Shown: positions 1,832 to 57,168 of the stretch, one piece after another
How positions within the stretch are numbered: position 1 is the first letter of the stretch
Layout of the letters: every line of letters starts with the position of its first letter
Assembly: GCA_963731265.1 (NCBI GenBank)
Contig: CAVSUE010000001.1
Span: 416,001-480,000 of the forward strand
Direction: 5' to 3'
Length of the DNA: 64,000 nucleotides
Source of the DNA: an uncultured Verrucomicrobiae bacterium
Lineage (GTDB): Bacteria; Chlamydiota; Chlamydiia; Chlamydiales; Rhabdochlamydiaceae
Translations under genes and position numbers: made by a program
Notes under the pieces: model-generated
Seen by the model: the letters and a program-made list of their open reading frames with translations, nothing else
Told to the model about the DNA's origin: nothing
Databases searched by the model: none

Positions 1832-4231
1832 ATGAGAAAGTATTTTCCTCTTATTTCAATGATATTGATCTTTCCCGGGTTTTCAGAGGAGTTAATCAAT
1901 CAATGCAGTTTCACTCCCGAGATTGATTATGAGATAGTTTTCATCAGTGAAAAACAAACCAGCTCCTATCAAAAGTTTTCAAAGGAAAAAAACAAGCTCA
2001 TCGAGATAAAAAAACAACTTATCGACAAAGAAAAGCAACTCATTCAAAGAAACAGAGAACTTGTCGCAAGGGAAAAAGAAATTGAAAGACAAAGACAGCT
2101 TCTCAAACAGGAAAGAGAAGATCAGCTCTTCTTGAACGCAAACAAAGAACAACAGTTATCGGTCCAGGCTGAATCGCAAGACATCCGAAGCGACCTTCAA
2201 CCGACGAGCCCGCCGCGCCCTGTCCTGGCGCCTAACAAAGAAGGTGTCGAGAAATGCCGCTCCCCTTTTCGCAACACGCATATAGGTGTGCGCCATACAG
2301 AGGCGCGGGGTGTGGGTTACAAAGATGGGTATACAACTCTAGAAGGATTCGGGATTTATGGCGAATCTTCTTCATGGATGCCTTTTTTTGATATTCGGGG
2401 ACACGTCTTTGATAATGGCAAATTTGCAGGCAATGTCGGAATTGGAATGAGAAACTACTTGCCGTCGATCGATCATTATTTTGGCGGGTACTTGTATTAC
2501 GATGTTCGCCAAAGTACTCACGGTTTGATGCCTCAACAGCTGAGCCCGGGAATGGAGTTGCTTGGAAAGCGCATGGAATATCGGATCAATGGATACTTTC
2601 CTGTAGGGAATGATGGAGGCAGAAAATATGATTTCAAATTCGAGGAATTCGAAGGGAATCGGATCATCGTCAAAGGTAAACAACAGCGCACCATGACGGG
2701 GGGAGATGCGGAAATCGGCGTCCATGTGACCCAAAGTACAAAATATGATGTCTATGCCGGCGCCGGACCTTATTATTTTACCGCCTCCGATCGGTCCTCC
2801 TGGGGAGGCAAAGCACGGCTGCTCGGGCGCTATAAGCAATGGGTTTCCCTCGAAGCTTCGTATTCTTATGACCGCCTTTTTGGAAACGTTGTGCAAGGAA
2901 CAATTTCCCTTAACGCTCCTTTTGGCAGCAAAATCAGACAAAAAGGAAAAACATGCAATGATCAGGTCAATCTCGCTCTCGGCCGCGTCGCCTATTCTCC
3001 CTACCGATTTGAAATTCCTGTTGTGAAAAAAATCACCAAAAAAACAAAGGCGGTCAATCCCGCTACAAACGATCCCTGGAAAGTGTGGTTTGTCAACAAC
3101 ACGAGCAGTTCGGATGGAACATTCGAAAGCCCCTTCCCGACATTGGCGCAAGCGCAAAACGCTTCTTCTCCAAATGATATGATCTATGTTTTCCCTGGGG
3201 ACGGCACGACGACGGGCATGAACATGGGAATCGTTCTCCAAAACGGCCAGGATCTATTCGGCTCAGGGATCTCCCACACGATTAAGACAAAACAAGGGAA
3301 AATCAAAATTCCGGCCTTTTCCACCACAGCTCCCAACATCACTAATGCGACGAGCATCGTCACCTTAGCTAACGACAATGAAGTATCGGGCTTTAACATT
3401 CTCGCTACCCAAATCAATTCGATTGGGATCAATGGGACCTCGGGCATTCAAAACACCAATATCAATCACAACGTCATTTCAGGAAGCATCGATTATTCAG
3501 GCATCTTTGTTATCGCAGGAGGAAAGCTGTTTGTCAGAGATAACCAGCTGACTGGAGCATTCAGCACCGTGAACGATGGCATACATATACAAAATCCAAT
3601 GCAGTCAGGAATCGATGTCAATGTTTCTAACAATACCATCTATGGTTTCCACAATGGAATTCGCGTGGGGCCCCCCGCTCCGCTAAAGGCTACAGGAGCT
3701 GTCTTAATTTCAAACAATTTCATCTCAAACTTTAGCAGTTTTGGAATCGACTATGAAACCGGGATGCTAAATTCTACGACTCAGATCGAAGACAATACTG
3801 TGATTAATAATGTGGGTATAAATACGTCAATAGGTATCGCAGTGATTCTCAATAACGCGCCTAATGCAGGGACGTGTTACATCACAGGCAACTCGGTGAC
3901 GACCACGACTTCGGCTGGCCTATCGTATGGCGTGTTAACCGAAATAGGCTCGCCTCAGCCCATGTCGGCGACTTTCATCATCTCGGATAATGGGATACTC
4001 ACAGGACCCACTGCTGGTTCAGTTGGGTTAAATATAAGATCTAATAATGCACCCGCTAGCATTTGTGCAGACGTGACTAACAACACAGTCCAGCTGCAGG
4101 CACCGAATACTTTCGGCCTTTCGGTCACGGCTATGGGATCTGTCAATTTCGAAGAGGCTTCATTCTCCAACAACGTGTTCCCAAATATTAGCTTCACGGG
4201 AGATGTCAACTTCGTCGAAAGCTGCCAGTAG
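1832..4231 (+). CDS. Inverse-autotransporter beta-domain outer membrane protein with beta-helix-like passenger
   Basis: Signal peptide, coiled coil, barrel segment with GNVGIG.R...YLYYD...QQLSPGMELLG...RINGYFPVG, then DGTFESPF and Asn/Ile/Gly-rich parallel beta-helix-like repeats. Confidence 0.7.
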   Translation: MRKYFPLISMILIFPGFSEELINQCSFTPEIDYEIVFISEKQTSSYQKFSKEKNKLIEIKKQLIDKEKQLIQRNRELVAREKEIERQRQLLKQEREDQLFLNANKEQQLSVQAESQDIRSDLQPTSPPRPVLAPNKEGVEKCRSPFRNTHIGVRHTEARGVGYKDGYTTLEGFGIYGESSSWMPFFDIRGHVFDNGKFAGNVGIGMRNYLPSIDHYFGGYLYYDVRQSTHGLMPQQLSPGMELLGKRMEYRINGYFPVGNDGGRKYDFKFEEFEGNRIIVKGKQQRTMTGGDAEIGVHVTQSTKYDVYAGAGPYYFTASDRSSWGGKARLLGRYKQWVSLEASYSYDRLFGNVVQGTISLNAPFGSKIRQKGKTCNDQVNLALGRVAYSPYRFEIPVVKKITKKTKAVNPATNDPWKVWFVNNTSSSDGTFESPFPTLAQAQNASSPNDMIYVFPGDGTTTGMNMGIVLQNGQDLFGSGISHTIKTKQGKIKIPAFSTTAPNITNATSIVTLANDNEVSGFNILATQINSIGINGTSGIQNTNINHNVISGSIDYSGIFVIAGGKLFVRDNQLTGAFSTVNDGIHIQNPMQSGIDVNVSNNTIYGFHNGIRVGPPAPLKATGAVLISNNFISNFSSFGIDYETGMLNSTTQIEDNTVINNVGINTSIGIAVILNNAPNAGTCYITGNSVTTTTSAGLSYGVLTEIGSPQPMSATFIISDNGILTGPTAGSVGLNIRSNNAPASICADVTNNTVQLQAPNTFGLSVTAMGSVNFEEASFSNNVFPNISFTGDVNFVESCQ

Positions 4232-29313: not shown

Positions 29314-30336
29314 TCAATTTTGCAGGTTGCAATAGAAAAGGAATGTTGCCTGCGGGGCTATGCTCTTCATGAGTTCTCGCGTGAAGGGAACGTGGCTCGT
29401 TTTTTGCGGAGGGGGATTTTCAGCCAGGATAACTGTGGCAATATCCTCATAGCCCCGTTTATCTGCAACGAGAGCCACTAAAGCCGATTGAAGGGGAGAG
29501 ACGGTAGGATTGAAGGCGGCATTTTCGAGATAATGCCCAACATAGATTGTCCCGTCGCGAGTTTGGAGAGCCAAGCCAGAGCGGCTTTTACTGTAAGGGG
29601 CATAGGAAGTACGATAAGCTTCGATCGCGAGTGCAACCAGCGGATCAGGATGATTAGATTGAAAGTCTAGTCCACGCGTAAGCAAATTGCCTTCCACCCC
29701 TAGATCTCTAGGCCCAAAAGCATCAGGGAGTAATTCGGATAATTTTCGCGGCGGGTGGGTTGGTGTGAGAATGTCTAGATCTTTTCCAAGTTCGTTCAAA
29801 AATTGCCGGCAATGGCCGCAAGGGGCGGCAGAAAGGGCAATCGCTTCAATTTCCGTTTCTCCATTAAGTCTAGCAACGATAACCGCGAATTGTTCTCCAT
29901 GGATGGTCTGATTCAAATGAAAGCCAGGAAATTCAAGATTGACTCCCAAATAAATGTTGCCGCTTTTTCCTAGCAAAGCAGCGCCGACTTTATAATCGGA
30001 GATGGGTGGACGGGCAAACTGCTTTGCAATGGGAATAAGCTCTTGGAGGAGCTCTTGTTTACTGAGCCCGGTTTGATTAAGAACCATACCCACTTTTTCC
30101 TTAACAATCACAAAAGGATTGGCCCCCAGAGCCTCCATGATGATTTTCGTTTGCAGTTGTTTTTTAGCAATTGCCGTTTCATGGGCATCCATTTCTACTT
30201 TCATCGGATTGCTGCTTGTGGCTGCAGGAATTTCTTCCGGATGAACAGCGGGGGCTTGGGGTTGGAAATATTCATTAGGCCTATTCAGATGATCTCTTAA
30301 AACAAATCGTTCCTTGGGTTGCTCTGATATTGTCAT
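29314..30336 (-). CDS. cdd: Cytidine deaminase (two-domain type) with N-terminal extension
   Basis: PISDYKVGA, GVNLEF, HGEQ, PCGHCRQF, SYAPYS, ENAAFNP. Confidence 0.9.
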   Translation of the reverse strand: MTISEQPKERFVLRDHLNRPNEYFQPQAPAVHPEEIPAATSSNPMKVEMDAHETAIAKKQLQTKIIMEALGANPFVIVKEKVGMVLNQTGLSKQELLQELIPIAKQFARPPISDYKVGAALLGKSGNIYLGVNLEFPGFHLNQTIHGEQFAVIVARLNGETEIEAIALSAAPCGHCRQFLNELGKDLDILTPTHPPRKLSELLPDAFGPRDLGVEGNLLTRGLDFQSNHPDPLVALAIEAYRTSYAPYSKSRSGLALQTRDGTIYVGHYLENAAFNPTVSPLQSALVALVADKRGYEDIATVILAENPPPQKTSHVPFTRELMKSIAPQATFLFYCNLQN

Positions 30337-30356
30337 TTCTCCTCCCTAAGCTTAAA

Positions 30357-30476
30357 CTGGACTTTACAACTTTTTGGGCCCGCCTGCCTCGCCTATTTAC
30401 TCTCGGCCGTTCGAACATGGGTCGAACGGCCGAGTAAATTTCGAGGCCTTCGGACTCGAAAAGCTGCAAAGTCGAG
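30357..30476. mobile_element. CTCGACTTTG-family palindromic element, copy 1
   Basis: Ends CTGGACTTTACAACTTTTTGGGCCCG / CGGACTCGAAAAGCTGCAAAGTCGAG; central hairpin CTCGGCCGTTCGA...TCGAACGGCCGAG; TTAAA on both flanks. Confidence 0.8.
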
Positions 30477-30588
30477 TTAAACTACCTAACAACATAAGCA
30501 TTCAACGAAATTCTTTTCAATCCTGGACAACAAAGCAAAATATTCCGATACTCGTTTACACTGTTAATTATTTGTAAAGGAGGTTCCA

Positions 30589-31371
30589 ATGAAACTGATT
30601 ACGATTTGTCTTTTGTCCCTCACTGCATTCTCCGCTAGCGTTTTTGCCGATACGACCGACAATCAACCTTTCGTTCTTCCGGAACATGTCTCAAAGTGGG
30701 AAGGAAAGCCCTACGAGGGTCCTATCGAAGTTTCAATATGGCGTGAAGAAAACGTCATTCGCGCCCTAATAGAAACTCAGGATCTCATCATGACCTCTCT
30801 CACAATAGACAAACTGGATGCCTATGTGGCATTATTCGGCGACCCTGCCGCTGTCGAAAAATATATGGATGCCATGACTTGGACGAGCAAAGAGGTCGGA
30901 ATGGCTGTCAGCCGTTGGGTGCAGCGTTGGGAAGAGTTTCAAGATCCGTTTAGCGCTTTTGCCGTCTATTCAAAAAATGAAGGCGCGCATTTTATCGGTC
31001 ATCTCGTTCTGGGTCATGGCCGCCGTTATGGCCAATCCGAATTGGCCTTCTTGTTCGCCCCCCAACATCGCGATATTGAACACGCCGTCCAGGCTGTTAC
31101 CGCGGTTGTACAGGGTTATGTCCCGCACATTGCGGGCAAGCACCTTGTCAACCTGAACGGATCTGTTACGGCAAGCCCCCTCCACAGCGTCCATTCTACC
31201 GCGCGATTCGATGATACATTTTCCGGACAAGCCTTGGTTCGATCCGGCTTTAAGATCGGGGTGGAAGAAGTGCTTTGGGATGCTCCCCGTTTCAATTATC
31301 TGATCACGCTTGATCAAATTCATCAAAACAACGATTCCTCTCAGGATCTTTTGATTGACGGCGAAGATTGA
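30589..31371 (+). CDS. Exported GNAT (RimL-like) acetyltransferase-fold protein
   Basis: Signal peptide; IETQDL, FIGHLVLG, ELAFLF, STARFDD..S..AL.RSGF resemble the RimL/GNAT fold. AGGAGG RBS. Confidence 0.55.
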   Translation: MKLITICLLSLTAFSASVFADTTDNQPFVLPEHVSKWEGKPYEGPIEVSIWREENVIRALIETQDLIMTSLTIDKLDAYVALFGDPAAVEKYMDAMTWTSKEVGMAVSRWVQRWEEFQDPFSAFAVYSKNEGAHFIGHLVLGHGRRYGQSELAFLFAPQHRDIEHAVQAVTAVVQGYVPHIAGKHLVNLNGSVTASPLHSVHSTARFDDTFSGQALVRSGFKIGVEEVLWDAPRFNYLITLDQIHQNNDSSQDLLIDGED

Positions 31372-31699
31372 TGATGTCGGTGTGCAGAGCCGATGTTTAT
31401 TGGCTCTGCTCACGAGCTCTCGCTGGCAGCCCTTGGCATCGCGTCTACGCGTCACATCTCAGTTGGTCCATTGATCGGCACTCAAAAGAATAGCCCGTTG
31501 ATAACCCGGTTGTTTAAAAGAAACTGTCCAGCCTGAATCTGGATTCTTGATTAAAGCGTCTTGGTTGAGACTAATTAAATATTTAATAGTAATAAATTGT
31601 TTAATTACGTGTTTTTTTTAAAAGTCAATGTAACAAATTCTCTTTCAATAAATCAAGAATAGTTTTTTCGGTAATAATTTTTTCTGAAAAATAATTAAA

Positions 31700-32239
31700 T
31701 AGTCGACCCTGATTTAGGCTCCTGCCATCATCGCTAACCCATCCTGGTTCTTTTTCTGTCGTCCACTTCCAACAACCTTTCGAACAAGACCATAATCTAT
31801 TCCAGCTTCCAAGCAGAAAAAAGCCCCAGTTTCCTGAGGATCGTTCTAAAGTTGTGAGCTATTGCTACCAGGAGTCCATGGATTTTGTCCCCCGTTGTTC
31901 CTTTCAGGTAACACCGTCCCAGCTTCCATCACTCTTCACGTGTCCAATCCAAGGCTCTATTGCTTGTCTTCGTTTAAGGGCTTTTTTAAGGGAAGGGGCT
32001 AACCCCTTTGTTCGACTGATCAGCACTTGCTTGCTCTTCACACCATGTCCTCGGAACCCTAGATCTACAAGCACTCTTTTTATCTCGATTTGTGTTACCC
32101 CTTCCGCCCACAGCGCTTCTTCAAGGAGGTGTCCATCGTAAGGGTTTCCTGCATGTGTTGTAAGCGTTAATGCAAGTCCTGTTTTTTCAGTGACAACAAG
32201 ACACGCCTTTGCTCCGAACTCATAAGGCTTGTGAGCCTT
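31700..32239 (-). pseudogene. IS5-family transposase remnant (3' half, frameshifted) with one terminal repeat
   Basis: Manual translation KAHKPYEFGAK...GNPYDGH...VDLGFRGH...KRRQAIEPWIGHVKSDG / frameshift / GRCYLKG..GD...AHNFR. End sequence TAGTCGACCCTGA at 31700. Confidence 0.85.
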
Positions 32240-32663
32240 AGAAGACTTGAAGCTTATTTGCTCAGCTTCTCCTCACTTGGCGAAGTTGGAAAGTCTAGAA
32301 ATTTTAGAAGTCGAAGATGATTTTAGAGACACCAAGGTGAAAATAGAGGCTGAACGACGAAAGAGCACCCTGACTACGCTTATGTGGCAAATATCTCAAG
32401 TCGTTGAAGATAAGATTCAAGAGACGAACACATATGGAGTGATTCTTTATCAAGCAATGTGCCCCTGGGTGAGTTGCCAACAGAAGCTAAAAATTTTTCA
32501 AGCAGAGCTCGGGGAGATTGCAGAGAAATCGAATACAGCCAAATCGATGGTTGAAGCCTTTGACTCTAAAAATTACAATGAATTGGCACATGAGTTTAAT
32601 GCCCTGGTTGAAGAGTAATTAATACTAGTGCAAAAACATACGCATATGTGAAAATATGCTGTC

Positions 32664-33278
32664 ATGAAGAACACATATTCTCCAGGTGAATTCGGATTAT
32701 TAATCGGAAGGACGACAAAAACCCTGCAAAGAGGGGATCGTAAGGGCATACTTAAGGCCCACCGTTCCATTACTGGACGGCGCTATTACACCCATGACCA
32801 ATATGTGGAGACAACTGGACAAAAAGCCAAAAAACGACAGTTGGTCACTTATTGTCGAGTATCAAGTGCAGGTCAAAAAAAGGATTTGATTTCACAGAAA
32901 AATGCTGTAGAATCTTTCTGTTTGACAGCAGGGAAAATCATCGAAGAGAAGTTGGAAGATATCGGTTCGGGGCTAAACTACAAGCGGAAACATTTCGTAC
33001 AATTGATGGAAATGGTAGAACGAGGTGAGGTATCTGAAATTGTAGTGGCCCATAAAGACAGGCTCGTCCGTTTTGGGTTCGAATGGTTCGAAAAATTCTG
33101 TAACGACCACGGAGTTTCCATTCTCGTTATGAATGCGGACTCTCTTTCACCTGAGCAAGAAATGACCAAAGATCTCCTATCAATTATTCATTGTTTTTCC
33201 AGTCGCTTATATGGCCTGAGAAAATACAAGAAGAAAATCATTGAAATGGCCAAAGACAATGAGAACGGTCAAGCGTAG
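32664..33278 (+). CDS. tnpA: IS607 serine recombinase/transposase TnpA
   Basis: MerR-like HTH (TLQR...TGRRYYT), catalytic YCRVSS, DIGSGLN, HKDRLVRFGF, CFSSRLYGLR. Confidence 0.93.
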   Translation: MKNTYSPGEFGLLIGRTTKTLQRGDRKGILKAHRSITGRRYYTHDQYVETTGQKAKKRQLVTYCRVSSAGQKKDLISQKNAVESFCLTAGKIIEEKLEDIGSGLNYKRKHFVQLMEMVERGEVSEIVVAHKDRLVRFGFEWFEKFCNDHGVSILVMNADSLSPEQEMTKDLLSIIHCFSSRLYGLRKYKKKIIEMAKDNENGQA

Positions 33279-34779
33279 GTCACTTCCACTCAACGCAAAA
33301 AAACAAACAGCTCTTGAAAGCTTATGCCAGGCATACACTGGTGAAAAACGGCTTTGGCTGCAACACTTCCAAGCCTGGGATTGTCAACCCTATTTAGGAA
33401 GGCCCCGAGCAATTCGGGATGAGAAAATCAAACAAGGCTATCGTTCACCCCACCAATTGCAGGCTCGTCATTGGAAACTTGCCCTTGATGACGCAGCTGA
33501 AACATGGGATAAATATTGGCAGTCCACTTTTGTTAAAGTCCGCTTAAAGATCTCCCATCGGAAAGCACTCTCCGAGACGGAGAGCCATTATGCCTATTGG
33601 CTTCTGAAAGGTTATTCCCAGTTTTCCGCCATGATGCAGGGGAAATGCCCGGAGCCGTCCTTTGCCATTGATGATCTCTCCCGGAGGTATATTGCAGGCT
33701 ATGTGCGGAGGATCACCAGACTCTGCAAAGGAAAACCACCCACTGTAAAAAAAGCCAGAAGCGTCCGGTTCGATGCCAACTGTTACGATCTTTTCGAGCA
33801 CAAAGGGCGTCAATACATCAAAATCATGTCTCTGATTCCCGGTAAGAGGATTTGTATCCCCTTATCCGGCAAAGCGCCTATTTCAGGCACAATTAGCCTT
33901 GTTTTGTCAGAAGGAAACGTTGACTTTCACATCCCTCAAGAATTAAAAAAGAAGAATCCTCCCAAGACATCTCCCGAAGCTGTAGACTTTGGATATACTG
34001 AAGTCATGACGGATACCCAAGGCATTCGTTATGGGACTCAATTTGGTACAATACTGACACAGGTATCAGAAAATCGGCACCAGAAAATGCAAAAACGTCA
34101 CAAGCTGCATGCCATGGAAAAGAGACCGACAACTTCCAATCCCAAAAAGGCAAAATCCCTTCGAAAATATAATCTAGGCAAGCAAAAACACCATGCGGCT
34201 GCCAAACGACTCAGGGCCACATTGGAAAGAGAAATCAACACCTCAATCAACCAACTCATCCAAACGAAAAATCCCTCCCTCTTAATCACAGAAGACTTGC
34301 GCCATACTTTTAAGTATAACAAGTCTAAACAAATGAATAGAAGACTCTCCAGCTGGTTGAGAGGTAAACTACAAGATCGAATTGCTTTTAAAGCGTTGGC
34401 GGAAGGTTTCCGTCATGAGCAGGTCAATCCGGCCTACGGCTCTCAAAGCTGTCCCTTTTGCGAATTTGTGGATCATCGAAATCGCAAAAACGACCGCTTT
34501 CAATGTCTGCATTGTGGACATGAGGACATATCGGACCGGATTGCCGCACTGAACTATGCCAGAAGATTTGGCGATCCTGAGATCGGACGGTATACGCCTT
34601 ACCGTCAAGTAAAAACCATTCTTTTGGACAGGTTCCACCGCCGATTGGAAACGGGGCAACCCGTGACTGTTCCAGGCAGGACTCTAGAAACCGTAATGGA
34701 GATGCGTCCACCGTCTCCATCCAGACCACGGAAGAGAGAAATCTCGCGAACCGGACGGTCAATCAGAGAGCGAAATTAA
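33259..34779 (+). CDS. tnpB: TnpB RNA-guided endonuclease
   Basis: RuvC-I AVDFG, RuvC-II TEDL, VNPAYGSQSCPFC / CLHCG zinc finger, RuvC-III SDRIAALN; overlaps tnpA. Confidence 0.9.
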   Translation: MRTVKRRSLPLNAKKQTALESLCQAYTGEKRLWLQHFQAWDCQPYLGRPRAIRDEKIKQGYRSPHQLQARHWKLALDDAAETWDKYWQSTFVKVRLKISHRKALSETESHYAYWLLKGYSQFSAMMQGKCPEPSFAIDDLSRRYIAGYVRRITRLCKGKPPTVKKARSVRFDANCYDLFEHKGRQYIKIMSLIPGKRICIPLSGKAPISGTISLVLSEGNVDFHIPQELKKKNPPKTSPEAVDFGYTEVMTDTQGIRYGTQFGTILTQVSENRHQKMQKRHKLHAMEKRPTTSNPKKAKSLRKYNLGKQKHHAAAKRLRATLEREINTSINQLIQTKNPSLLITEDLRHTFKYNKSKQMNRRLSSWLRGKLQDRIAFKALAEGFRHEQVNPAYGSQSCPFCEFVDHRNRKNDRFQCLHCGHEDISDRIAALNYARRFGDPEIGRYTPYRQVKTILLDRFHRRLETGQPVTVPGRTLETVMEMRPPSPSRPRKREISRTGRSIRERN

Positions 34780-34833
34780 AAATAAACACGTTTGAACACG
34801 TTTTTAGGAACAGTTGGACACAATAGATCGGGA
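34620..34833 (+). ncRNA. Predicted TnpB omega/reRNA (right end plus about 20-nt flank guide); 5' boundary approximate
   Basis: Inferred from position; hairpin ACGGG-GCAA-CCCGT in the tnpB 3' tail; guide would start TTGGACACAATAGATCG at 34814. Confidence 0.5.
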
Positions 34834-35106
34834 TCATCACATTTCCAAATTGCATGCTTATGTGAATCAATAGGGAATTTTGACGGCGTGGGGTAATCTC
34901 CGAGCTCAATGCGTGCAGAATTTGTCGGCGCTACCAGAATCGAAACAGAGCTTGCAAAAGCTTTTCCAGATGGGAGAGTAAAAAAAAGGCCTCCATCAAA
35001 AGCGGCGGCCCAGTTTAAGGATTGTGTTATTTAATTCTACTTTCTAGTAAAATTTATTTTTATTATTAAATTATCTTTTAAAGAAATTTTCACCAAGAAA
35101 TCAATC

Positions 35107-37143
35107 GTGGCGAATCCGATCACACATTCACGCTTTCCCACCCCTGCAGCTATTATACCGCAGAATACTGCGCTGCTGGAGATGCCGCAAGATATAGTCA
35201 CTCAAATTTTGACAAATTTATCTAGCCAGGACATCGCGACAGGTTCCTTGGTCTGTAGACAATGGACGCAGATGCTGAAAGATGATGATGTTTGGCGCAA
35301 ATTATTTCATCACCATTTTCCAAGGGGTAACGCAAGGTCCGCTGAGAATTTCCAGAGCGCCTACCGAGGTATTTATTCCAATCTTACAAAAGGAGTGTAT
35401 GCTTTGCATACCCTGACAGGCCATGGGAACCCGGTAATCTCTCTTGCCGTGTTCGATGGGAAGCTCTTTTCGGGTTCTTCCGACTGCACAATCAAGGTCT
35501 GGGAGCTAGAAACGGGGCAGTGCACAGCGACGCTTACAGGCCACATGAACGCGGTTTGCTCTCTTGCCGCCTTCGATGGGAAGCTCTTTTCGGGCTCTAA
35601 AGACAGCACCATCAAGGCCTGGGAGCTAGAAACGGGCGAGTGCATAGCGACCCTTACACGCCACAGGAAGTCGGTTTGCTCTCTTGCCACCTTCGACGGG
35701 AAGCTCTTTTCGGGCTCTAAGGACTGCACCATCAAGGTCTGGGATTTAGAAACACTACAGTGTACAGCGACCCTCACAGGCCATCAGGGCTTGGTTGGCT
35801 CCCTTGCCGTCTTCGACGGGAAGCTCTTTTCGGGCTCTTGGGACCACACCATCAAGGTCTGGGATCTAAAAACACGACAGTGCACAGCGACCCTCAAAGG
35901 GCATGGGACCTCGGTTTGGTCTCTTGCCGTCTTCGATGAGAAGCTTTTTTCGGCCTCTGCCGCGGGCCCCATCAAGCTCTGGGATATAAAAACAGAACGG
36001 TGCACAGGGACCTTTATAGGCCATCATGGCGGGGTTTTATCTCTTGCGGTCTTCGATGGGAAGCTTTTTTCGGCCTCTTGCGACGACACCATCAAGATCT
36101 GGGAGCTAAAAACAGAACGGCGCACAGCGACCCTGACAGGCGATGGGGGCGGGGTTTTCTCTCTTGCCTTCTTCGAGGGGAATCTCTTTTCGAACTCTAG
36201 CGACCACACCATCAAGGTTTGGGATTTTACAGCGGATCACAGGACGATTTTTCAAGAGATCGCACTATTATTAGAAAATGAAAGTCAGAATGTCGTTGAT
36301 GCCCTTGAGCGCTTTAAGCGGATGCCTAAAACGGCAAAACATGCCATCTATGCAAAGCTCTATGCAATTTGCCAACCATTTGCCTATCCCGGATGTACAG
36401 AAGATGCTTTTTATGATAAAAATGGACAAATCTCTACGCGTCTTCAAAAGGCTCAGGCAATTCGGGACTATTTGAATGATCAGCCTCCAAACAACAACCC
36501 TCGATTGCTGGCTCACCTAGGGATCAAAACCGAAAAGGAGTATTCAGAAAAGCTAAAGTGCCGTTCAGAGTATTTAGAAAAAATCGGCATTTTGTCGGCA
36601 GAAGACGTGAAACTGATTTGCTCAGCTTCTCCTCACTTGGTGAAGTTGGAGACCTTGGAGATCATAGAAGTCGAAGAAAATTTTAGAGACAACAAGGTGA
36701 AAATAGAGGCCGAACGACGAAAGACCGAGCTGACAACGCTTGTGGGGGAAATATCCCAATTCGTCGAAGATAAGATTAAAGAGACGAATACATGTGGCGT
36801 GATTCTTTATAAAGCAGTGTGCCCTTGGGTCAGTTTCCAACAGAAGTTAAAAGCTTTTCAAGTAAAGCTAGGTGAGATTGCAGATAAATCCAATACGGCT
36901 AAGTCGATGGTCGAAGCCTTTGATTCTAAAAATTACAATGGATGGGCTCGTGCATTGAATCCTCTGGTTGAAGAGTTTCACACATTAGATCGCACGCATC
37001 AGCTTTCCAAATTGCATGCTTATGTGAATCAATGGGGAATTTTGACGGCTTGGAATCACCTTCGAGAGGAAGGCATGCAGAATTTGTCGGCGCTACCAGA
37101 ATCTAAGCGGAGCTTGCAAAAGCTTTTTCAAATGGGACAGTAA
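35107..37143 (+). CDS. F-box / 7x WD40 protein with C-terminal domain of unknown function (candidate SCF-hijacking effector)
   Basis: LLEMPQDIVTQILTNL...VCRQW...DDDVWR F-box; seven TLTGH..V.SLAVFDGKLFSGS.D.TIKVWD repeats. Confidence 0.92.
   Translation: MANPITHSRFPTPAAIIPQNTALLEMPQDIVTQILTNLSSQDIATGSLVCRQWTQMLKDDDVWRKLFHHHFPRGNARSAENFQSAYRGIYSNLTKGVYALHTLTGHGNPVISLAVFDGKLFSGSSDCTIKVWELETGQCTATLTGHMNAVCSLAAFDGKLFSGSKDSTIKAWELETGECIATLTRHRKSVCSLATFDGKLFSGSKDCTIKVWDLETLQCTATLTGHQGLVGSLAVFDGKLFSGSWDHTIKVWDLKTRQCTATLKGHGTSVWSLAVFDEKLFSASAAGPIKLWDIKTERCTGTFIGHHGGVLSLAVFDGKLFSASCDDTIKIWELKTERRTATLTGDGGGVFSLAFFEGNLFSNSSDHTIKVWDFTADHRTIFQEIALLLENESQNVVDALERFKRMPKTAKHAIYAKLYAICQPFAYPGCTEDAFYDKNGQISTRLQKAQAIRDYLNDQPPNNNPRLLAHLGIKTEKEYSEKLKCRSEYLEKIGILSAEDVKLICSASPHLVKLETLEIIEVEENFRDNKVKIEAERRKTELTTLVGEISQFVEDKIKETNTCGVILYKAVCPWVSFQQKLKAFQVKLGEIADKSNTAKSMVEAFDSKNYNGWARALNPLVEEFHTLDRTHQLSKLHAYVNQWGILTAWNHLREEGMQNLSALPESKRSLQKLFQMGQ
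35410..36226 (+). repeat. 120-bp tandem coding repeat (WD40) x7
   Basis: AAGCTCTTTTCGGG..., ATCAAGGTCTGGGA recur every 120 nt. Confidence 0.95.
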
Positions 37144-37164
37144 GAAGCGAGTTTATGCTACTTC

Positions 37165-37329
37165 CACTTGAAAGTTAGGAAAATTTCTGCTTCAGCATCT
37201 TCACTCTTACGGCCGTCGTTTTGCGACGGCCTTTTTGTTCGTTCCATCGACAATGTGCTTGCACATGGTCTGCTTCAACAAACAAAAAATTGAAGCGCTG
37301 AAATTGAAATTTTCTATAACTTTCAAGTG
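37165..37329. mobile_element. MITE-like palindromic element between convergent genes; supplies the pgm stop codon
   Basis: Ends CACTTGAAAGTTAGGAAAATTTC / GAAATTTTCTATAACTTTCAAGTG; internal hairpin GGCCGTCG-TTTTG-CGACGGCC followed by T5. Confidence 0.7.
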
Positions 37330-39101
37330 TCAGCAGTATATACCTTAACGGCATCTTTTTTTAGTGCATCCAAATATTGATCGAGGCGGTTGTCGCAATC
37401 CTGGACGGCTTCCTCAATCATTTTAAACTGATCTCTAGACGTGCTGCCATAGATCTTGATCTTGGGTTCCGTTCCGGACGGGCGGATAACGAGGCGGGAA
37501 TGGTCCGCGAGGCGGAAAAGCAGAACATCGGACTTGGGAAGCTTCAGGGGTTCGGTCTTTTTCGAATCGACATAAACGCGCTGTTTTTTTTCGTAATCTT
37601 CGCAATAGAGGATCGATTGGTCGGCAATGTTTTTTGGAGGGGTGGTTCGCAATCTTTGCATGACAGCCGCCATTTGCTCCATCCCTTCTTTGCCGGGATT
37701 GAAATTGATCGACATCTGTTTTTCCCGGAACATGCCGTATTTTTTGTAGATCGAATGCAATCGGTCAATCAATGTCTGGCCGCCTTGCATCTTGGCCTGA
37801 AGGGCAATTTCGGCGATGAGGCAGGAGGTCACGATCGCATCTTTGTCGCGGGCATGAGTCCCCAGTAGATACCCATACGATTCTTCCGCCCCGAAAATAA
37901 AGTGATAACCATCTTTGGAAGTTTCCCAAAGATGAATTTTCTCTCCAATGTATTTAAATCCTGTCAAAACTTCAAAACACGACTTTTGGTAGCTTTCCGC
38001 AATTTTTTTCAGTAGTTCTGTTGTGACAATTGTCGTGACGAAAGCTCCCTTGGTAGGCATTGTGCCGAGCTGGGTCAGGACCTCGCAAAGGTAATCCACG
38101 CAAATCGCAGCCATTTCGTTGCCATTGAGGAGGATTGATTTCCCTTCATGGCGGACGACGGTCCCGGTCCGGTCGGCATCAGGATCAGTGGCAATGACGA
38201 TATCTGATTGTGTCATCTCCAGCTTTTCGATGCCGAGTTTCATCGTCTCTTTGTATTCAGGATTGGGAAAAGCCACGGTGGGGAAATCGCCGTCGATGGT
38301 CACTTGATTGTCGACCATTTCAACCGTCGAAAACCCCCAATCTTTTAGTGCGCGGGGAACTATGGTGATTCCAGTGCCGTGTAGACTTGTGTAAACAATC
38401 TTTAACGATGCTCCATTTTTTTTGTTCTGCTCGGGAAAATGTTGCAAAGGACGGATGGCATTGATGTATTCTTCATCGATGGGGGCTGTGGGAACAATCT
38501 CGATCAAAGGGTCCTGGAGAGAAGCGAGCCGTACCGAGGAAAAATCCTTGAGCTTCTCTGTTTCTTTGACAATTCCTTCGTCATGCGGATAGACGACCTG
38601 CGCGCCGTCGCTCCAGTACACTTTGTATCCATTGTACTGTTTAGGATTGTGGGAAGCCGTGATCATAACGGCAGCATTAGCTTTTTTAAGCCGGCAGGCA
38701 AAAGAAATGTAAGGCGTGGGCCTTAATTCGCGGAGCAAATACGCATGAATTCCATTGCCGGCCAGCACCCTTGCTGTCTCTTGAGCAAATTCTTGCGAAT
38801 GATGCCGGGAATCAAAACCGATCAACGCACTAAGTTTTGAGGCGCCTGCCTGTTTGTGCATATAGTTAGCAAGGCCCTGCGTAGCGAGGCGGACGGTGTA
38901 GATATTCATGCGCGTTGTGCCAGGGCCCATAATCCCGCGAAGACCTCCTGTTCCAAAAGTCAAATCGGTAAAAAAGGCATCGATGAGTTCTTGGGGATTT
39001 TTTTCCATTAAAGTGCGGATTTCGGTCTTTGTCTGCTCGTCGAAAGGGCCTTGCAGCCATTCATCGACTCGTTTTTGAATTTCAGGGGGAAGTGCAGACA
39101 T
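37323..39101 (-). CDS. pgm: Phosphoglucomutase/phosphomannomutase
   Basis: FGTGGLRG, TASHNP, DPDADR, GAEESYG, IRPSGTEPKIK. Confidence 0.93.
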   Translation of the reverse strand: MSALPPEIQKRVDEWLQGPFDEQTKTEIRTLMEKNPQELIDAFFTDLTFGTGGLRGIMGPGTTRMNIYTVRLATQGLANYMHKQAGASKLSALIGFDSRHHSQEFAQETARVLAGNGIHAYLLRELRPTPYISFACRLKKANAAVMITASHNPKQYNGYKVYWSDGAQVVYPHDEGIVKETEKLKDFSSVRLASLQDPLIEIVPTAPIDEEYINAIRPLQHFPEQNKKNGASLKIVYTSLHGTGITIVPRALKDWGFSTVEMVDNQVTIDGDFPTVAFPNPEYKETMKLGIEKLEMTQSDIVIATDPDADRTGTVVRHEGKSILLNGNEMAAICVDYLCEVLTQLGTMPTKGAFVTTIVTTELLKKIAESYQKSCFEVLTGFKYIGEKIHLWETSKDGYHFIFGAEESYGYLLGTHARDKDAIVTSCLIAEIALQAKMQGGQTLIDRLHSIYKKYGMFREKQMSINFNPGKEGMEQMAAVMQRLRTTPPKNIADQSILYCEDYEKKQRVYVDSKKTEPLKLPKSDVLLFRLADHSRLVIRPSGTEPKIKIYGSTSRDQFKMIEEAVQDCDNRLDQYLDALKKDAVKVYTADT

Positions 39102-48906: not shown

Positions 48907-50943
48907 TTACTCTCCCATCTGGAAAAGCTTTTGCAAACTCTGTTTGGATTCTGGGAGCGCAGACAAATTCTGCACGCCTTGAGCGCGGAGGTTATTCCAA
49001 GCCGTTAAAATTCCCCATTGATTGACGTAAGCATGCAATTTGGAAATCTGATGATCGCGATCTAATGTGTGAAACTCTTCAACCAAAGCATTCAACTCAC
49101 CAGCCAATCCATTGTAATTTTTAGAATCAAAGGCTTCGACCATCAACTTGGCCGTATTCGATTTCTCTCCAATCTCACTCAGCTTTCCTTGAAAAGTTTT
49201 TAGCTTCTGTTGGAAACTCACCCATGGGCACTCTGCTTCATAAAGAATCACGCCACATGTGTTCGTCTCTTCAACCTTATTTTCGACGACTTGGGATATT
49301 TGGCCCAGAAGCGTTGTCAGATTGGTCTTTCGTCGTTCGGCCTTTATTTTCACCTTGTTGTCTCTAAAATCTTCTTTCACTTCTACGATCTCTAGGCTCT
49401 CCAATTTCAGAAAGGGAGGCCAAGCTGAGCAAATCAGTTTTACGTCTTCTGCCGACAAGATGCCGATTTTTTCTAAATGCCCTGAACGGCACTTTAGCTT
49501 TTCTGAACATTGTTTTTCGGTTTTGATCCCAAGGTGAGCAAGCAAGAGGAGGTTGTTTTTTGGAGGCTGATCATTCAAATAGTCCCGAATTGCCCTAGCC
49601 TTTTGAGCGCCCGTAGAGCTTTGTCCATGTTGATTGTGAAAGGCGTGTTCTGCACAACCGGGATACTCATTGGCAAAAGGTTGGCAATTTGCATAGAGCT
49701 CTCTGTAAATGGCATTTTTTGCAGTTGTTGGCATCCGCGAAAACCGCTCAAAGGCATGAGCTACTCTCTGACTTTCATTTTCAAGCTCTTCCGCGATCTC
49801 TTGAAAAATCGTGCTATTATTCGCTGTAAAATCCCAGACCTTGATTGTGTTGTCGGCACAGCCCGAAAAGAGCTTCCCATTGAGGGCGGCAAGAGAGCAA
49901 ACCGATTTCTCATGGCCTGTCAGGGTCGCTGTGCACTTTCCCGTTTTTAGGTCCCAAACCTTGATTGTGTTGTCGGCAGAGCCCGAAAAGAGCTTCCCGT
50001 CGAAGACGGCAAGAGACAAAACCCAGTTCCCATGGCCTGTCAGGGTCGCTGTGCACTGTCCTGTTTTTAGGTCCCAAACCTTGATTGTTTTGTCGGAAGA
50101 GCCCGAAAAGAGCTTCCCATTGAGGGCGGCAAGAGAGCAAACCGATTTCTCATGGCCTGTCAGGGTCGCTGTGCACTGTCCTGTTTTTAGGTCCCAGACC
50201 TTGATGGTGCGGTCTATAGAGCCCGAAAAGAGCTTCCCATCGAAGATGGCAAGAGATAAAACCGTGTGTCCATGTCCTGTCAAGGTTGCTGTGCACTGTC
50301 CTGTTTTTAGATCCCAGACCTTGATGGTGCGGTCTATAGAGCCCGAAAAGAGCTTCCCGTCGAAGATGGCAAGAGATAAAACCTTGTGTCCATGTCCTGT
50401 CAAGGTTGCTGTGCACTGTCCTGTTTTTAGGTCCCAGGCCTTGATGGTGCGGTCCGCAGAGGCCGAAAAGAGCTTCCCGTCAAAGATGGCAAGAGAAGAA
50501 ACCCCCTCTTGATGGCCTGCCAGGGTTACAGTGCACTGTCCTGTTTTTAGATCCCAGACCTTGATGCTGTTAGAGGCCGAAAAGAGCTCCCCATCGAAGA
50601 CGGCAAGAGAGTTAACCGAGTCGTCATGGCCTGTAAGGGTATCCGAAGCGTACACTCCTTTTGGGAGATTTGAATGAAGACCTTGGTAGGCGCTCTGGAA
50701 ATTCTCAATAGAGCGTGGGTTAACGGTTGGAAAACGGTTATAAAATAATATGCGCCAAACATCATCATCTTTCAGAGCCTGGTTCAATTCTTTACAGACT
50801 AAGGCGCTTGTTCCGATTTCCTGGGCAGGCAAGTGTGTCAAAATTCGAGTGACTATATCTTGCGGCATATCCAAAAGCCCAGTGTTCTGCGGTATAATGG
50901 GTGCAGGGTTTGGAAGTCCTGAAGGATTGATGGAGTTCGTCAT
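48907..50943 (-). CDS. F-box / 7x WD40 protein, paralogue of 35107-37143
   Basis: Same architecture and length (678 aa); LLDMPQDIVTRILTHL F-box; highly similar C-terminal domain. Confidence 0.92.
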   Translation of the reverse strand: MTNSINPSGLPNPAPIIPQNTGLLDMPQDIVTRILTHLPAQEIGTSALVCKELNQALKDDDVWRILFYNRFPTVNPRSIENFQSAYQGLHSNLPKGVYASDTLTGHDDSVNSLAVFDGELFSASNSIKVWDLKTGQCTVTLAGHQEGVSSLAIFDGKLFSASADRTIKAWDLKTGQCTATLTGHGHKVLSLAIFDGKLFSGSIDRTIKVWDLKTGQCTATLTGHGHTVLSLAIFDGKLFSGSIDRTIKVWDLKTGQCTATLTGHEKSVCSLAALNGKLFSGSSDKTIKVWDLKTGQCTATLTGHGNWVLSLAVFDGKLFSGSADNTIKVWDLKTGKCTATLTGHEKSVCSLAALNGKLFSGCADNTIKVWDFTANNSTIFQEIAEELENESQRVAHAFERFSRMPTTAKNAIYRELYANCQPFANEYPGCAEHAFHNQHGQSSTGAQKARAIRDYLNDQPPKNNLLLLAHLGIKTEKQCSEKLKCRSGHLEKIGILSAEDVKLICSAWPPFLKLESLEIVEVKEDFRDNKVKIKAERRKTNLTTLLGQISQVVENKVEETNTCGVILYEAECPWVSFQQKLKTFQGKLSEIGEKSNTAKLMVEAFDSKNYNGLAGELNALVEEFHTLDRDHQISKLHAYVNQWGILTAWNNLRAQGVQNLSALPESKQSLQKLFQMGE
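49830..50641 (-). repeat. 120-bp tandem coding repeat (WD40) x7
   Basis: GCCCGAAAAGAGCTTCCC recurs every 120 nt; some units nearly identical. Confidence 0.95.
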
Positions 50944-54978: not shown

Positions 54979-56295
54979 ATGAAAACTCTTGTCATAGGTC
55001 TTGGACTCAGCGGAAGAGCAGCGGTCCGCTTTTTATTGAAACAGGGACATCGAGTGATCGCGGTCGACAGCAGCCGTTCGATTTTAGGAACGAAAGAAGT
55101 TGTCGATTTGCAAAATAGGGGATCCCAATGCCAACATGATAGCGAGACGATCGATTGGACACACATCGAGAGTGTTGTGGTCTCTCCAGGTATCAGTCCA
55201 AAGCAATTTCTTTATCGCGCTGCCTTAGAAAAAGGGATTGAGATCACCGGAGAAGCCGAGCTTGCGCTGCCCCATTTCAAAAAACCTCTGGTGGCTGTAA
55301 CTGGGACGAATGGCAAAACAACGGTCGCGCTTCTTGTCGAACATATTCTCAATACGGCAGGTGTCAAAGCCAAAGCGTTGGGGAATGTCGGCACAGCTCT
55401 TTGCGATTATTTGATGGAGCCGGGATCGGAAGAGGCCTTTGTCGTCGAACTCAGCTCTTATCAACTCGAAACAATGCGAACCCCTGTCTTCGAGGCGGCC
55501 GCGCTTTTAAATATCACCCCCGATCACTTGGATCGTTATGCCAACATGGAAGAGTATGCGAAGAGTAAGTGTCGTCTGCAAACTTTAATGAAAAAACCAG
55601 ACTGCTTTTTTGTTCAGGACCAGATTGTCAAATTCTTTGCGCCTTTGTTACACTCTCCGAAGACTTTTGGAATGGAAACAAGCAGCGCTCTTTGGACGGA
55701 CAAGACAAAAATTGTCTACCGAGAAAAGATTGAAAGCTTTTTACCTATTCGCTATAGAGAAATGGGAAGGCACGACAATGAGAACGCATTGGCAGCTTGG
55801 GCCCTTTGCATTCCTTTTTCGATAGAGAGCGAGCAGTTTTGCAAGGCATTGGAAACTTTTCGCAAGCCCCATCACCGCATTGAATTCGTCCGCGAGGTGG
55901 ATGGGATTTCTTTCTTTGACGATAGCAAAGGGACGAATATCGATGCCGTCATCCAAGCAGTAAAGGTGATGAAAGGCCCGGTAATCCTCATCGTAGGAGG
56001 AGTGGACAAGGGAGCGTCCTATCTCCCCTGGAAAGAACCTTTTTCCGGTAAAATCAAACAGATGATCGCGATTGGGGCCTCAGCGAAGAAAATTTACCAG
56101 GAATTGCATCCCTATTTTAACATTAAGTTTGCTGATTCTTTAGCCTCGGCTGTCCAGGCAGCCGCCAGCTGCTCAGAAAGAGGGGACTCTGTCCTTCTTT
56201 CTCCGGGATGTTCGAGTTTTGATATGTTTCGCGATTACGAACACCGAGGGGAAGAGTTTCAGCGCCAAGTTCATCTATTAAGGAGAACATTATGA
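54979..56295 (+). CDS. murD: UDP-MurNAc-L-Ala--D-Glu ligase
   Basis: GLGLSG, SPGI, TGTNGKTT, ELSSYQL, DHLDRY, DSKGTN, LLSPGCSSFD. Confidence 0.96.
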   Translation: MKTLVIGLGLSGRAAVRFLLKQGHRVIAVDSSRSILGTKEVVDLQNRGSQCQHDSETIDWTHIESVVVSPGISPKQFLYRAALEKGIEITGEAELALPHFKKPLVAVTGTNGKTTVALLVEHILNTAGVKAKALGNVGTALCDYLMEPGSEEAFVVELSSYQLETMRTPVFEAAALLNITPDHLDRYANMEEYAKSKCRLQTLMKKPDCFFVQDQIVKFFAPLLHSPKTFGMETSSALWTDKTKIVYREKIESFLPIRYREMGRHDNENALAAWALCIPFSIESEQFCKALETFRKPHHRIEFVREVDGISFFDDSKGTNIDAVIQAVKVMKGPVILIVGGVDKGASYLPWKEPFSGKIKQMIAIGASAKKIYQELHPYFNIKFADSLASAVQAAASCSERGDSVLLSPGCSSFDMFRDYEHRGEEFQRQVHLLRRTL

Positions 56296-57071
56296 CCCGA
56301 AAAGATACGATTATCGTTGCAGTGCTGATCAATGCAGGACTGCTCATTGTGTTGTTTGCCACTGCACTCAAATCCGATTCAAGCAAAGAAGAATTTGCTG
56401 CAAGTCCTGCTCCTGTCGTCCAGACAGCTGTTCCCGATTATTCTTTTAAAAAAGAAACGACGACTGTTGTGGGGGACGAGGTCGATGTTGCACTCAATCA
56501 ATTTGCGCAAAACGCGATGCCCTCTTCCACTCCCGTCACGCAAACTCCTTCGCTAACTCCTCCCACTGATACAATGGCCACATGGGCGCCTGCGAGTTTC
56601 GCCGATGATCTCAAAGCCATTGCCCTGCCCGAAACGACTGTTCCCACTCCCATTCAAAATCAAAACGCACAGACTTTGGTCGCTCCGATGGCTCCGCAAA
56701 ATAAGCCTGCACCCGAATTTACGGAAATCAAGGTAAAAAAGGGGGATGTTTTAGAGAAAATTGCCCGCCATCATCATACGACCGTCGCTGAAATCATGAA
56801 AACCAATAAATTGACGACCAGCAACCTGCGCATTGGGCAAGTCTTGAAAATCCCCCATAAATCGATCAAAAAAGCAGAGCCGTCGACCATTGCTTTCTCC
56901 CCTCAATCTTCTGCACCCGAAGCCAAATACTACATTGTGAAAAAAGGGGACAGCCCCTGGACGATTGCGGTAAGGAATCATCTCAAAGTGGAAGATCTTC
57001 TTAAATTGAATCACATGTCCGAAGAGCAAGCTCGTCGGCTGAAACCGGGCGATAAACTTCGAATCCAGTGA
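56292..57071 (+). CDS. Membrane-anchored LysM x2 protein (chlamydial NlpD-like)
   Basis: VKKGDVLEKIA...N.L....LRIGQVLKIP and VKKGDSPWTIA...LKPGDKL. Confidence 0.88.
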   Translation: MTRKDTIIVAVLINAGLLIVLFATALKSDSSKEEFAASPAPVVQTAVPDYSFKKETTTVVGDEVDVALNQFAQNAMPSSTPVTQTPSLTPPTDTMATWAPASFADDLKAIALPETTVPTPIQNQNAQTLVAPMAPQNKPAPEFTEIKVKKGDVLEKIARHHHTTVAEIMKTNKLTTSNLRIGQVLKIPHKSIKKAEPSTIAFSPQSSAPEAKYYIVKKGDSPWTIAVRNHLKVEDLLKLNHMSEEQARRLKPGDKLRIQ

Positions 57072-57168
57072 ACCCAGGCCTTAAGGCGTGGGATAAAGTT
57101 GGGGCCGAGCTTCAAACTCGGCCCAACATTTTTTTTGAAACTACCCGGCCCTTAAGGGCCGGGTTTCC
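57069..57168. repeat. Pair of inverted REP-like palindromes flanking an intrinsic terminator
   Basis: ACCCAGGCCTTAAGGCGTGGG and ACCCGGCCCTTAAGGGCCGGGT flank GTTGGGGCCGAG-CTTCAAA-CTCGGCCCAAC-A-T9. Confidence 0.6.

Follow-up and report, generated by a model that had tools for sequence, protein, structure and literature searches.

An IS607-family element with TnpB and a covarying omegaRNA scaffold in an F-box/WD40 gene remnant of a chlamydial genome, with a guide whose resemblance to intact paralogues is probably incidental

The 64,000-nt stretch of DNA analysed here (the window; positions 416001-480000 of contig C1 in a 2.34-Mb two-contig genome of an uncultured chlamydia-like bacterium) carries an IS607-family insertion sequence (IS) that encodes the serine recombinase TnpA and the protein TnpB. 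Among IS607 elements that combine TnpB with an omegaRNA, this IS represents a divergent chlamydial clade. It interrupts the 3' remnant of a gene of the F-box/WD40 family, two intact members of which also lie in the window, and the DNA to its right, the predicted guide template, resembles a homologous site in both. In all likelihood this is an IS607 copy whose guide resembles the paralogues incidentally, and neither cleavage of the paralogues nor homing into them would be expected, because three seed mismatches are present at every paralogue site. The element, the remnant and the intact paralogues are arranged as follows.

32616..34813, + strand: IS607-family insertion sequence, 2198 bp, delimited by blastn against the genome and by junction alignment.
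32240..32615, + strand: left piece of the remnant, homologous to paralogue 1 nt 1494-1870 (blastn, 84.35% over 377 nt).
34814..34981, + strand: right piece of the remnant, homologous to paralogue 1 nt 1870-2037 (blastn, 83.9%).
35107-37143, + strand: intact paralogue 1.
48907-50943, - strand: intact paralogue 2.

Together, the two flanking pieces correspond to the last 544 of the 2037 nt of a paralogue, with 84% identity to paralogue 1. They are jointly colinear with nine paralogues at 76-85% identity; identity to the intact paralogues is 81-85% over 544 nt. No F-box/WD40 part is left in the remnant, and Pfam finds no family in its open reading frame (ORF) at 32247-32618. A nonsense codon in the right piece (34871-34873), where TAG replaces the TGG of the intact paralogues, also points to a pseudogene. 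F-box/WD40 genes number roughly twenty or more in this genome, some of them in tandem arrays (C1 530136-534896, 1090294-1098920 and 1178693-1186916; C2 149740-158089), and their internal WD40 repeats give rise to many self-matches. Expansions of F-box/WD40-type gene families have been described for Chlamydiae (PMC4209131), and we infer that the genes encode effectors.

The boundaries of the element are sharply defined. The host sequence ...GTTGAAGAG runs up to 32615 and the element body, TAATTAAT, starts at 32616; the right end closes with ...GGAACAG at 34813 and is followed by the flank TTGGACACAATAGATCGGGAT from 34814. The features at the two junctions are the following.

32611..32615, + strand: left flank AAGAG, resembling a target-adjacent motif (TAM), with the motif RRGAG drawn from nine genome copies and 12 related loci.
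32616..32663, + strand: left end of the element, from alignments of copies and relatives.
34814..34834, + strand: right flank, the predicted guide template; copies and relatives diverge right after CAG.

The right end ...TTTTTAGGAACAG is identical in all nine genome copies. Related loci in other genomes end in GGAACAG in 18 of 18 cases, 16 of them with exactly TTTTTAGGAACAG, and from the first base past CAG the sequences of copies and related loci are unrelated. The guide template is placed at 34814 because nine copies and 18 related loci fix the right end between CAG and T. On the left, GAG precedes the element at 21 of 21 loci (nine copies and 12 related loci), with a purine at -4 in all 21 and at -5 in 20. 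Since the host paralogues read GAAGAG without interruption, this sequence belongs to the target and not to the element. The dinucleotide AG stands to the left of the element (32614-32615) and also closes the right end, in nine of nine copies. Aligned with the paralogues, the flanks of the studied copy are colinear and, apart from the shared AG(T), contain no duplicated bases. AG is the putative crossover dinucleotide of the serine recombinase. In one copy, c5 (C1 682352), an additional C separates the flanking GAG from the first element bases, which makes this the only irregular junction of the nine.

The right end, AACAG, differs from the left flank, AAGAG, at a single position, -3. By analogy with CboIStron, this position may protect the element from cutting itself. 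In that IS607 system the TAM is reported as TGGG and the right end as TCGG, with -3 telling self from non-self (bioRxiv 10.1101/2023.11.20.567912), and measurements on IS607 TnpBs of 22 strains are reported to have given a 5'-AGGAG TAM for 18 of them (PMC11061315). Comparison of copies and relatives thus gives good support to the predicted guide start and TAM class, as it does to the omegaRNA scaffold described below. An earlier note on this DNA had described an IS that splits a decayed F-box/WD40 copy, with RuvC D/E/D residues in TnpB, the right flank as guide, the left flank as TAM, and GAAGAG plus a near-match in both intact paralogues. The observations are confirmed, the guide and TAM assignments are well supported, and the AG junction, which the note proposed to look for in other copies, is common to all of them.

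The coding and RNA components of the element overlap one another.

32664-33278, + strand: tnpA, serine recombinase of 204 aa (PF00239 Resolvase at residues 61-187; NF033518).
33259..34779, + strand, from the ATG: tnpB, 506 aa (PF07282; 61-sequence alignment; AlphaFold; Foldseek).
34632..34813, + strand: omegaRNA scaffold core, overlapping the tnpB 3' end (RNAalifold, covariation).

The two genes overlap by 20 nt on the same strand. TnpA scores 201.5 bits against the NCBIfam IS607 transposase model NF033518 (cut-off 110), covering profile positions 6-187 of 187. Its catalytic domain begins only at residue 61 of 204, which leaves the DNA-binding part N-terminal. An N-terminal block, LQRWDR...RRYYT, is common to the studied copy and four relatives in the alignment, and we take it to be a MerR-like helix-turn-helix.

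TnpB belongs, as judged from its homologues, to a divergent clade of roughly 510-aa proteins from environmental chlamydia-like bacteria. More than 260 homologues of about 510 aa were found, and the few that are named come from chlamydial metagenome-assembled genomes. The Cas12f1-like TNB domain PF07282 is recognised at 47.1 bits (cut-off 26.3), and RuvC residues D243, E345 and D426, along with zinc-finger cysteines C398, C401, C416 and C419, are invariant among 61 aligned homologues. Whole-protein models recognise it less well: NF040570 (guided_TnpB) scores 76.2 bits (E 2.9e-21), under its cut-off of 100, and NF038280 (IS607_TnpB), whose cut-off is 350, gives 22.6 bits. In the PDB, a profile search with TnpB gave matches confined to the C-terminal RuvC/zinc-ribbon part of Cas12f, the C-terminal third. 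The AlphaFold model (mean predicted local distance difference test score, pLDDT, 82.9; tail 470-506 disordered) has a predicted TnpB/Cas12f fold. Its best Foldseek match is AsCas12f (E 3e-13; template modelling scores 0.53/0.62), and the list also includes ISFba1 TnpB (8iaz), ISDra2 TnpB (8h1j) and mimivirus Fanzor2 (9b0l).

At the C-terminus of TnpB, the last ~45 residues (34640-34779; alignment columns 501-574) are read in different frames among relatives while the nucleotides are conserved. Because the frames differ and the nucleotides do not, the constraint on the tnpB 3' tail appears to act on RNA, not on protein. The conserved structured RNA makes up the last ~180-240 nt of the element and ends exactly at its right end, with two more covarying hairpins upstream of the core, from about 34573. 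The 5' GGUUCC of the scaffold pairs with the 3'-terminal GGAAC. Of the 60 pairs that RNAalifold predicts, 23 have compensatory changes; pairing holds in 96% of the alignment cells, a share that drops to 32-44% once partners are slid by 1-3 columns, and none of 500 shuffles reached the observed covariation score. Rfam scans of 34500-34850 (E up to 10) and 30000-38000 (E up to 1) gave minus-strand matches at chance level only, and in the same scans the RAGATH-18 covariance model left the scaffold RNA unmatched. RAGATH-18 is an Rfam family.

The resemblance between the guide and the intact paralogues concerns two sites in the window.

36970..36996, + strand: homologous site in paralogue 1, GAAGAG plus 21 nt, 14 of the 21 identical to the guide.
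49054..49080, - strand: homologous site in paralogue 2, GAAGAG plus 21 nt, 17 of the 21 identical to the guide.

After GAAGAG, both paralogues read TTTCACACATTAGATCG (from 36976 on the + strand; from 49074 downward on the - strand). Over 17 nt the guide agrees with each at 14 positions, the mismatches being at positions 3, 4 and 10. These same positions differ from the guide in nine of nine aligned paralogues and in two paralogues of a related genome, which are readable at the site and have TTTC, not TTGG. Across the genome, every paralogue site with a GAG TAM has at least three mismatches within positions 1-12. The genome-wide search for guide sites that the earlier note proposed recovered near-matches in paralogues and no second exact copy of the guide.

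How close these matches are was gauged with a chance control, in which the guides of all nine copies (16 nt plus a GAG TAM) were compared with the genome. Three of the eight other guides (c5, d2 and d4) have non-homologous GAG-flanked sites with 3/16 mismatches. The studied guide also has one such non-homologous site at 3/16, and a non-homologous site has only two seed mismatches to it, fewer than any paralogue. Judged as a similarity, the match between guide and paralogues far exceeds chance; judged as a near-target, it does not exceed it. The guide resembles the intact paralogues because the element inserted in one gene of a family whose members share about 84% identity. With a few percent of the genome occupied by this family, one copy out of nine falling in it is no surprise.

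The suggestion that this nuclease is aimed at the host family finds no support in these comparisons: the seed is mismatched at every paralogue site, chance sites are equally close, and plain homology accounts for the likeness. We consider it very unlikely that the TnpB-omegaRNA of the studied copy acts on the paralogues, whether by binding, nicking or cutting them or by driving gene conversion or homing among them. Four paralogue sites do combine a GAG TAM with 13/16 identity to the guide, and at least seven other open TnpB ORFs in the genome could load the RNA of the studied copy. Mismatches 3, 4 and 10, however, lie in the seed at all of the paralogue sites. Single mismatches at positions 1-13 are reported to abolish or strongly impair ISFba1 TnpB activity (PMC11061315), and double mismatches in positions 1-12 are described as abolishing cleavage by ISDra2 TnpB (review PMC13639567). 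The omegaRNA of the studied copy would, moreover, be without a hairpin that is conserved elsewhere.

Homing among family members, which the earlier note had also raised, leaves no sign, because the element is absent from each of the nine close paralogue sites that were aligned in this genome; the eight other copies sit in DNA unrelated to the paralogue family. In a 401-nt contig of a related sample, a right end of the element is joined to sequence that begins at the paralogue 2 stop codon (48909, - strand), after GGGAGAG. The studied genome lacks this insertion, which is therefore polymorphic in the related sample, and the family has been struck repeatedly, which would favour an action on the paralogues. 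The site is nevertheless a different, non-homologous one, and this insertion probably represents ordinary transposition into an RRGAG site, not homing.

Public data were also searched for the empty site and for transcripts. Among 40 relatives searched with the right flank, none yielded an uninterrupted orthologous site, and none of the matches extended into unique downstream DNA. Right-flank matches occurred in two genomes besides the element's own, either as paralogues that align from query base 8 or later or as a short weak match. Contigs of four public runs on 32200-35100 include none that covers either flank or bridges the junction of the studied copy. A 271-nt contig from an RNA library aligns to 34492-34730 with 15 differences, which assigns it to a relative and means that it cannot show a transcript of the studied copy.

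A partial match to host coding sequence also brings to mind TnpB-derived repressors. TldR proteins are reportedly TnpB-like, nuclease-dead repressors that have lost RuvC residues and mobility and whose guides match a host gene. That the studied TnpB is a domesticated, TldR-like RNA-guided repressor of the F-box/WD40 family is, in our view, extremely improbable, even though such repressors are known (bioRxiv 10.1101/2023.11.30.569447) and the guide partly matches coding sequence of the family. Unlike in TldR, the RuvC triad is intact and invariant, and the gene remains in a mobile element that retains its transposase and ends and is present as nine near-identical copies. The guide is simply the flank, and what it matches, with mismatches in the seed, is internal coding sequence close to the 3' end.

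A separate question is whether the studied copy itself is still functional. In comparison with the four other full-length copies it has four private events, each at a position that is conserved throughout the remaining copies and the relatives examined. At 32625, in the left end, it has C, whereas all other copies and 12 of 12 relatives have G. In TnpA, W24G (32733) falls inside LQRWDR, where copy c2 and four of four relatives keep W. The other two events lie in the scaffold.

34722..34729, + strand: lesions private to the studied copy, from a 19-sequence alignment.

The first is 34722 G>C, a G in the 18 other aligned sequences. The second is a 9-nt deletion between 34728 and 34729, through which helix 10 loses its 3' arm and helix 11 one pair. 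Helix 10 pairs in 18 of the 18 other sequences, with compensatory changes in two of its three pairs, and the studied copy is the only one of the nine copies and 19 aligned sequences with either scaffold lesion. The four events may reflect decay or selected inactivation, and the studied copy may simply be decaying.

It is possible, though on balance we doubt it, that the studied copy is an inert relic, impaired both in cis and as a source of guides, so that it has no functional guide. The placement of all four private events at conserved positions and the location of the copy in a dead gene remnant speak for this. On the other side, the tnpA and tnpB ORFs are still open, and the predicted fold of the lesioned scaffold retains every other helix. 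Other TnpBs can often do without peripheral stems of their omegaRNA. Other copies also have 0-9 private columns, and four events are too few for a test.

The private differences in the guide region were weighed in a similar way. The 21-nt guide window has only three remnant-private differences, all of them in the TAM-proximal 12-nt seed, which is the densest cluster of private differences in the 544-nt fragment: three or more occur in 2.3% of 12-nt windows. With 21-nt windows the corresponding figure is 11.8%, and with mismatches to the consensus it is 13-17%; 21-nt windows of the remnant have a mean of 2.4 mismatches to the family consensus, and the guide window has 4. This density test was post hoc and the stretch varies among paralogues too, so the excess is not counted as significant. 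One could propose that selection against self-targeting shaped the studied copy, with the seed differences defusing a guide that would otherwise have matched about ten host genes and the scaffold lesions fixed because they served the same end. We regard this as unlikely.

Several points weigh against the account favoured here, of an IS607 copy with an incidental guide match and no expected action on the paralogues. Pure chance explains the seed cluster of three private differences only moderately well. The production of the omegaRNA and its 3' end are predicted from sequence. The TAM is taken by analogy from other TnpB clades, and that of this clade may differ. Finally, as TnpB falls below the NCBIfam cut-off and its RNA lies outside Rfam, the mismatch rules of ISFba1 and ISDra2 may not transfer.

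According to the favoured account, TnpA would presumably move the element by a crossover at the AG inside an RRGAG target, and the studied copy would have happened to land in the 3' remnant of one F-box/WD40 member. The omegaRNA transcript would span the 3' end of tnpB and the right end and run on into the flank. TnpB-omegaRNA would then recognise the rejoined empty site, with RRGAG read as the TAM and the right flank as the guide, and cut it, which would favour retention of the element. On the mismatched paralogue sites we infer that it would lack activity.

Several better known systems come close to this one. CboIStron of Clostridium botulinum, as described in bioRxiv 10.1101/2023.11.20.567912, likewise combines a serine recombinase with TnpB and a right-flank guide. 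It has the same core dinucleotide at both junctions, a transposase target that doubles as the TnpB TAM, and a right end that departs from the TAM at -3 only. The core and motif are AG and RRGAG in the studied element and are given as GG and TGGG for CboIStron. In contrast to CboIStron, the studied element gave no Rfam match that would reveal a group I intron, and its TnpB has 506 aa. ISFba1 and other IS607 TnpBs with RAGATH-18-derived right-end element RNA (reRNA) share the IS607 context, a TAM ending in GAG and a related fold; that report gives an average size of 390 aa, against 506 aa here (PMC11061315). The RNA of the studied element, unlike theirs, matches no Rfam family. ISDra2 TnpB, from the IS200/IS605 family, is described as an RNA-guided RuvC nuclease whose omegaRNA overlaps the tnpB 3' end and ends at the right end, and which uses a TAM and a seed of about 12 nt (PMC8612924; review PMC13639567), all of which parallels the predictions made here. 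It has a Y1 transposase, a single-strand mechanism, an AT-rich TAM and about 400 aa, unlike the studied element, and its TnpB has only remote sequence similarity to the one studied.

The nine element copies in the genome share 96-99% identity (blastn). Five, the studied copy included, are full-length with tnpA, at ~2.2 kb each, and the other four lack tnpA, at ~1.87 kb each. The latter lie on C1 at 1169326-1171208, 55196-57078 (- strand), 159560-161443 and 860814-863610. They match the full-length type at only 76% identity over the left ~283 nt but at 96-98% over tnpB and the right end, and about 306 nt are gone; by their sequence they look like non-autonomous or recombinant elements. In the copy at 860814-863610, 306 nt of tnpB are replaced by ~1.2 kb of foreign DNA with other ORFs. 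Outside this genome, a contig of a metagenome-assembled genome labelled Cytophagales has the 3' 140 nt of the omegaRNA module plus GGAACAG at 3661-3920, ~1.9 kb downstream of the end of its TnpB match. The element in that contig may be rearranged or interrupted.

Taken together, the findings do not support a nuclease that threatens or reshapes the F-box/WD40 genes of the host. Only if the scaffold lesions and the differences in the seed were in fact selected would the locus carry the natural imprint of TnpB 'autoimmunity' towards paralogous genes, and of an escape from that autoimmunity, and offer new information on the cost of RNA-guided nucleases that land in repeated genes. As it stands, the locus is a clean natural example of the known IS607 logic, in which the target is also the TAM, the guide is taken from the right flank and position -3 would provide self-protection. 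The element ends, the RRGAG motif and the covarying scaffold make this clade of TnpBs, whose omegaRNA lies outside Rfam, directly testable.

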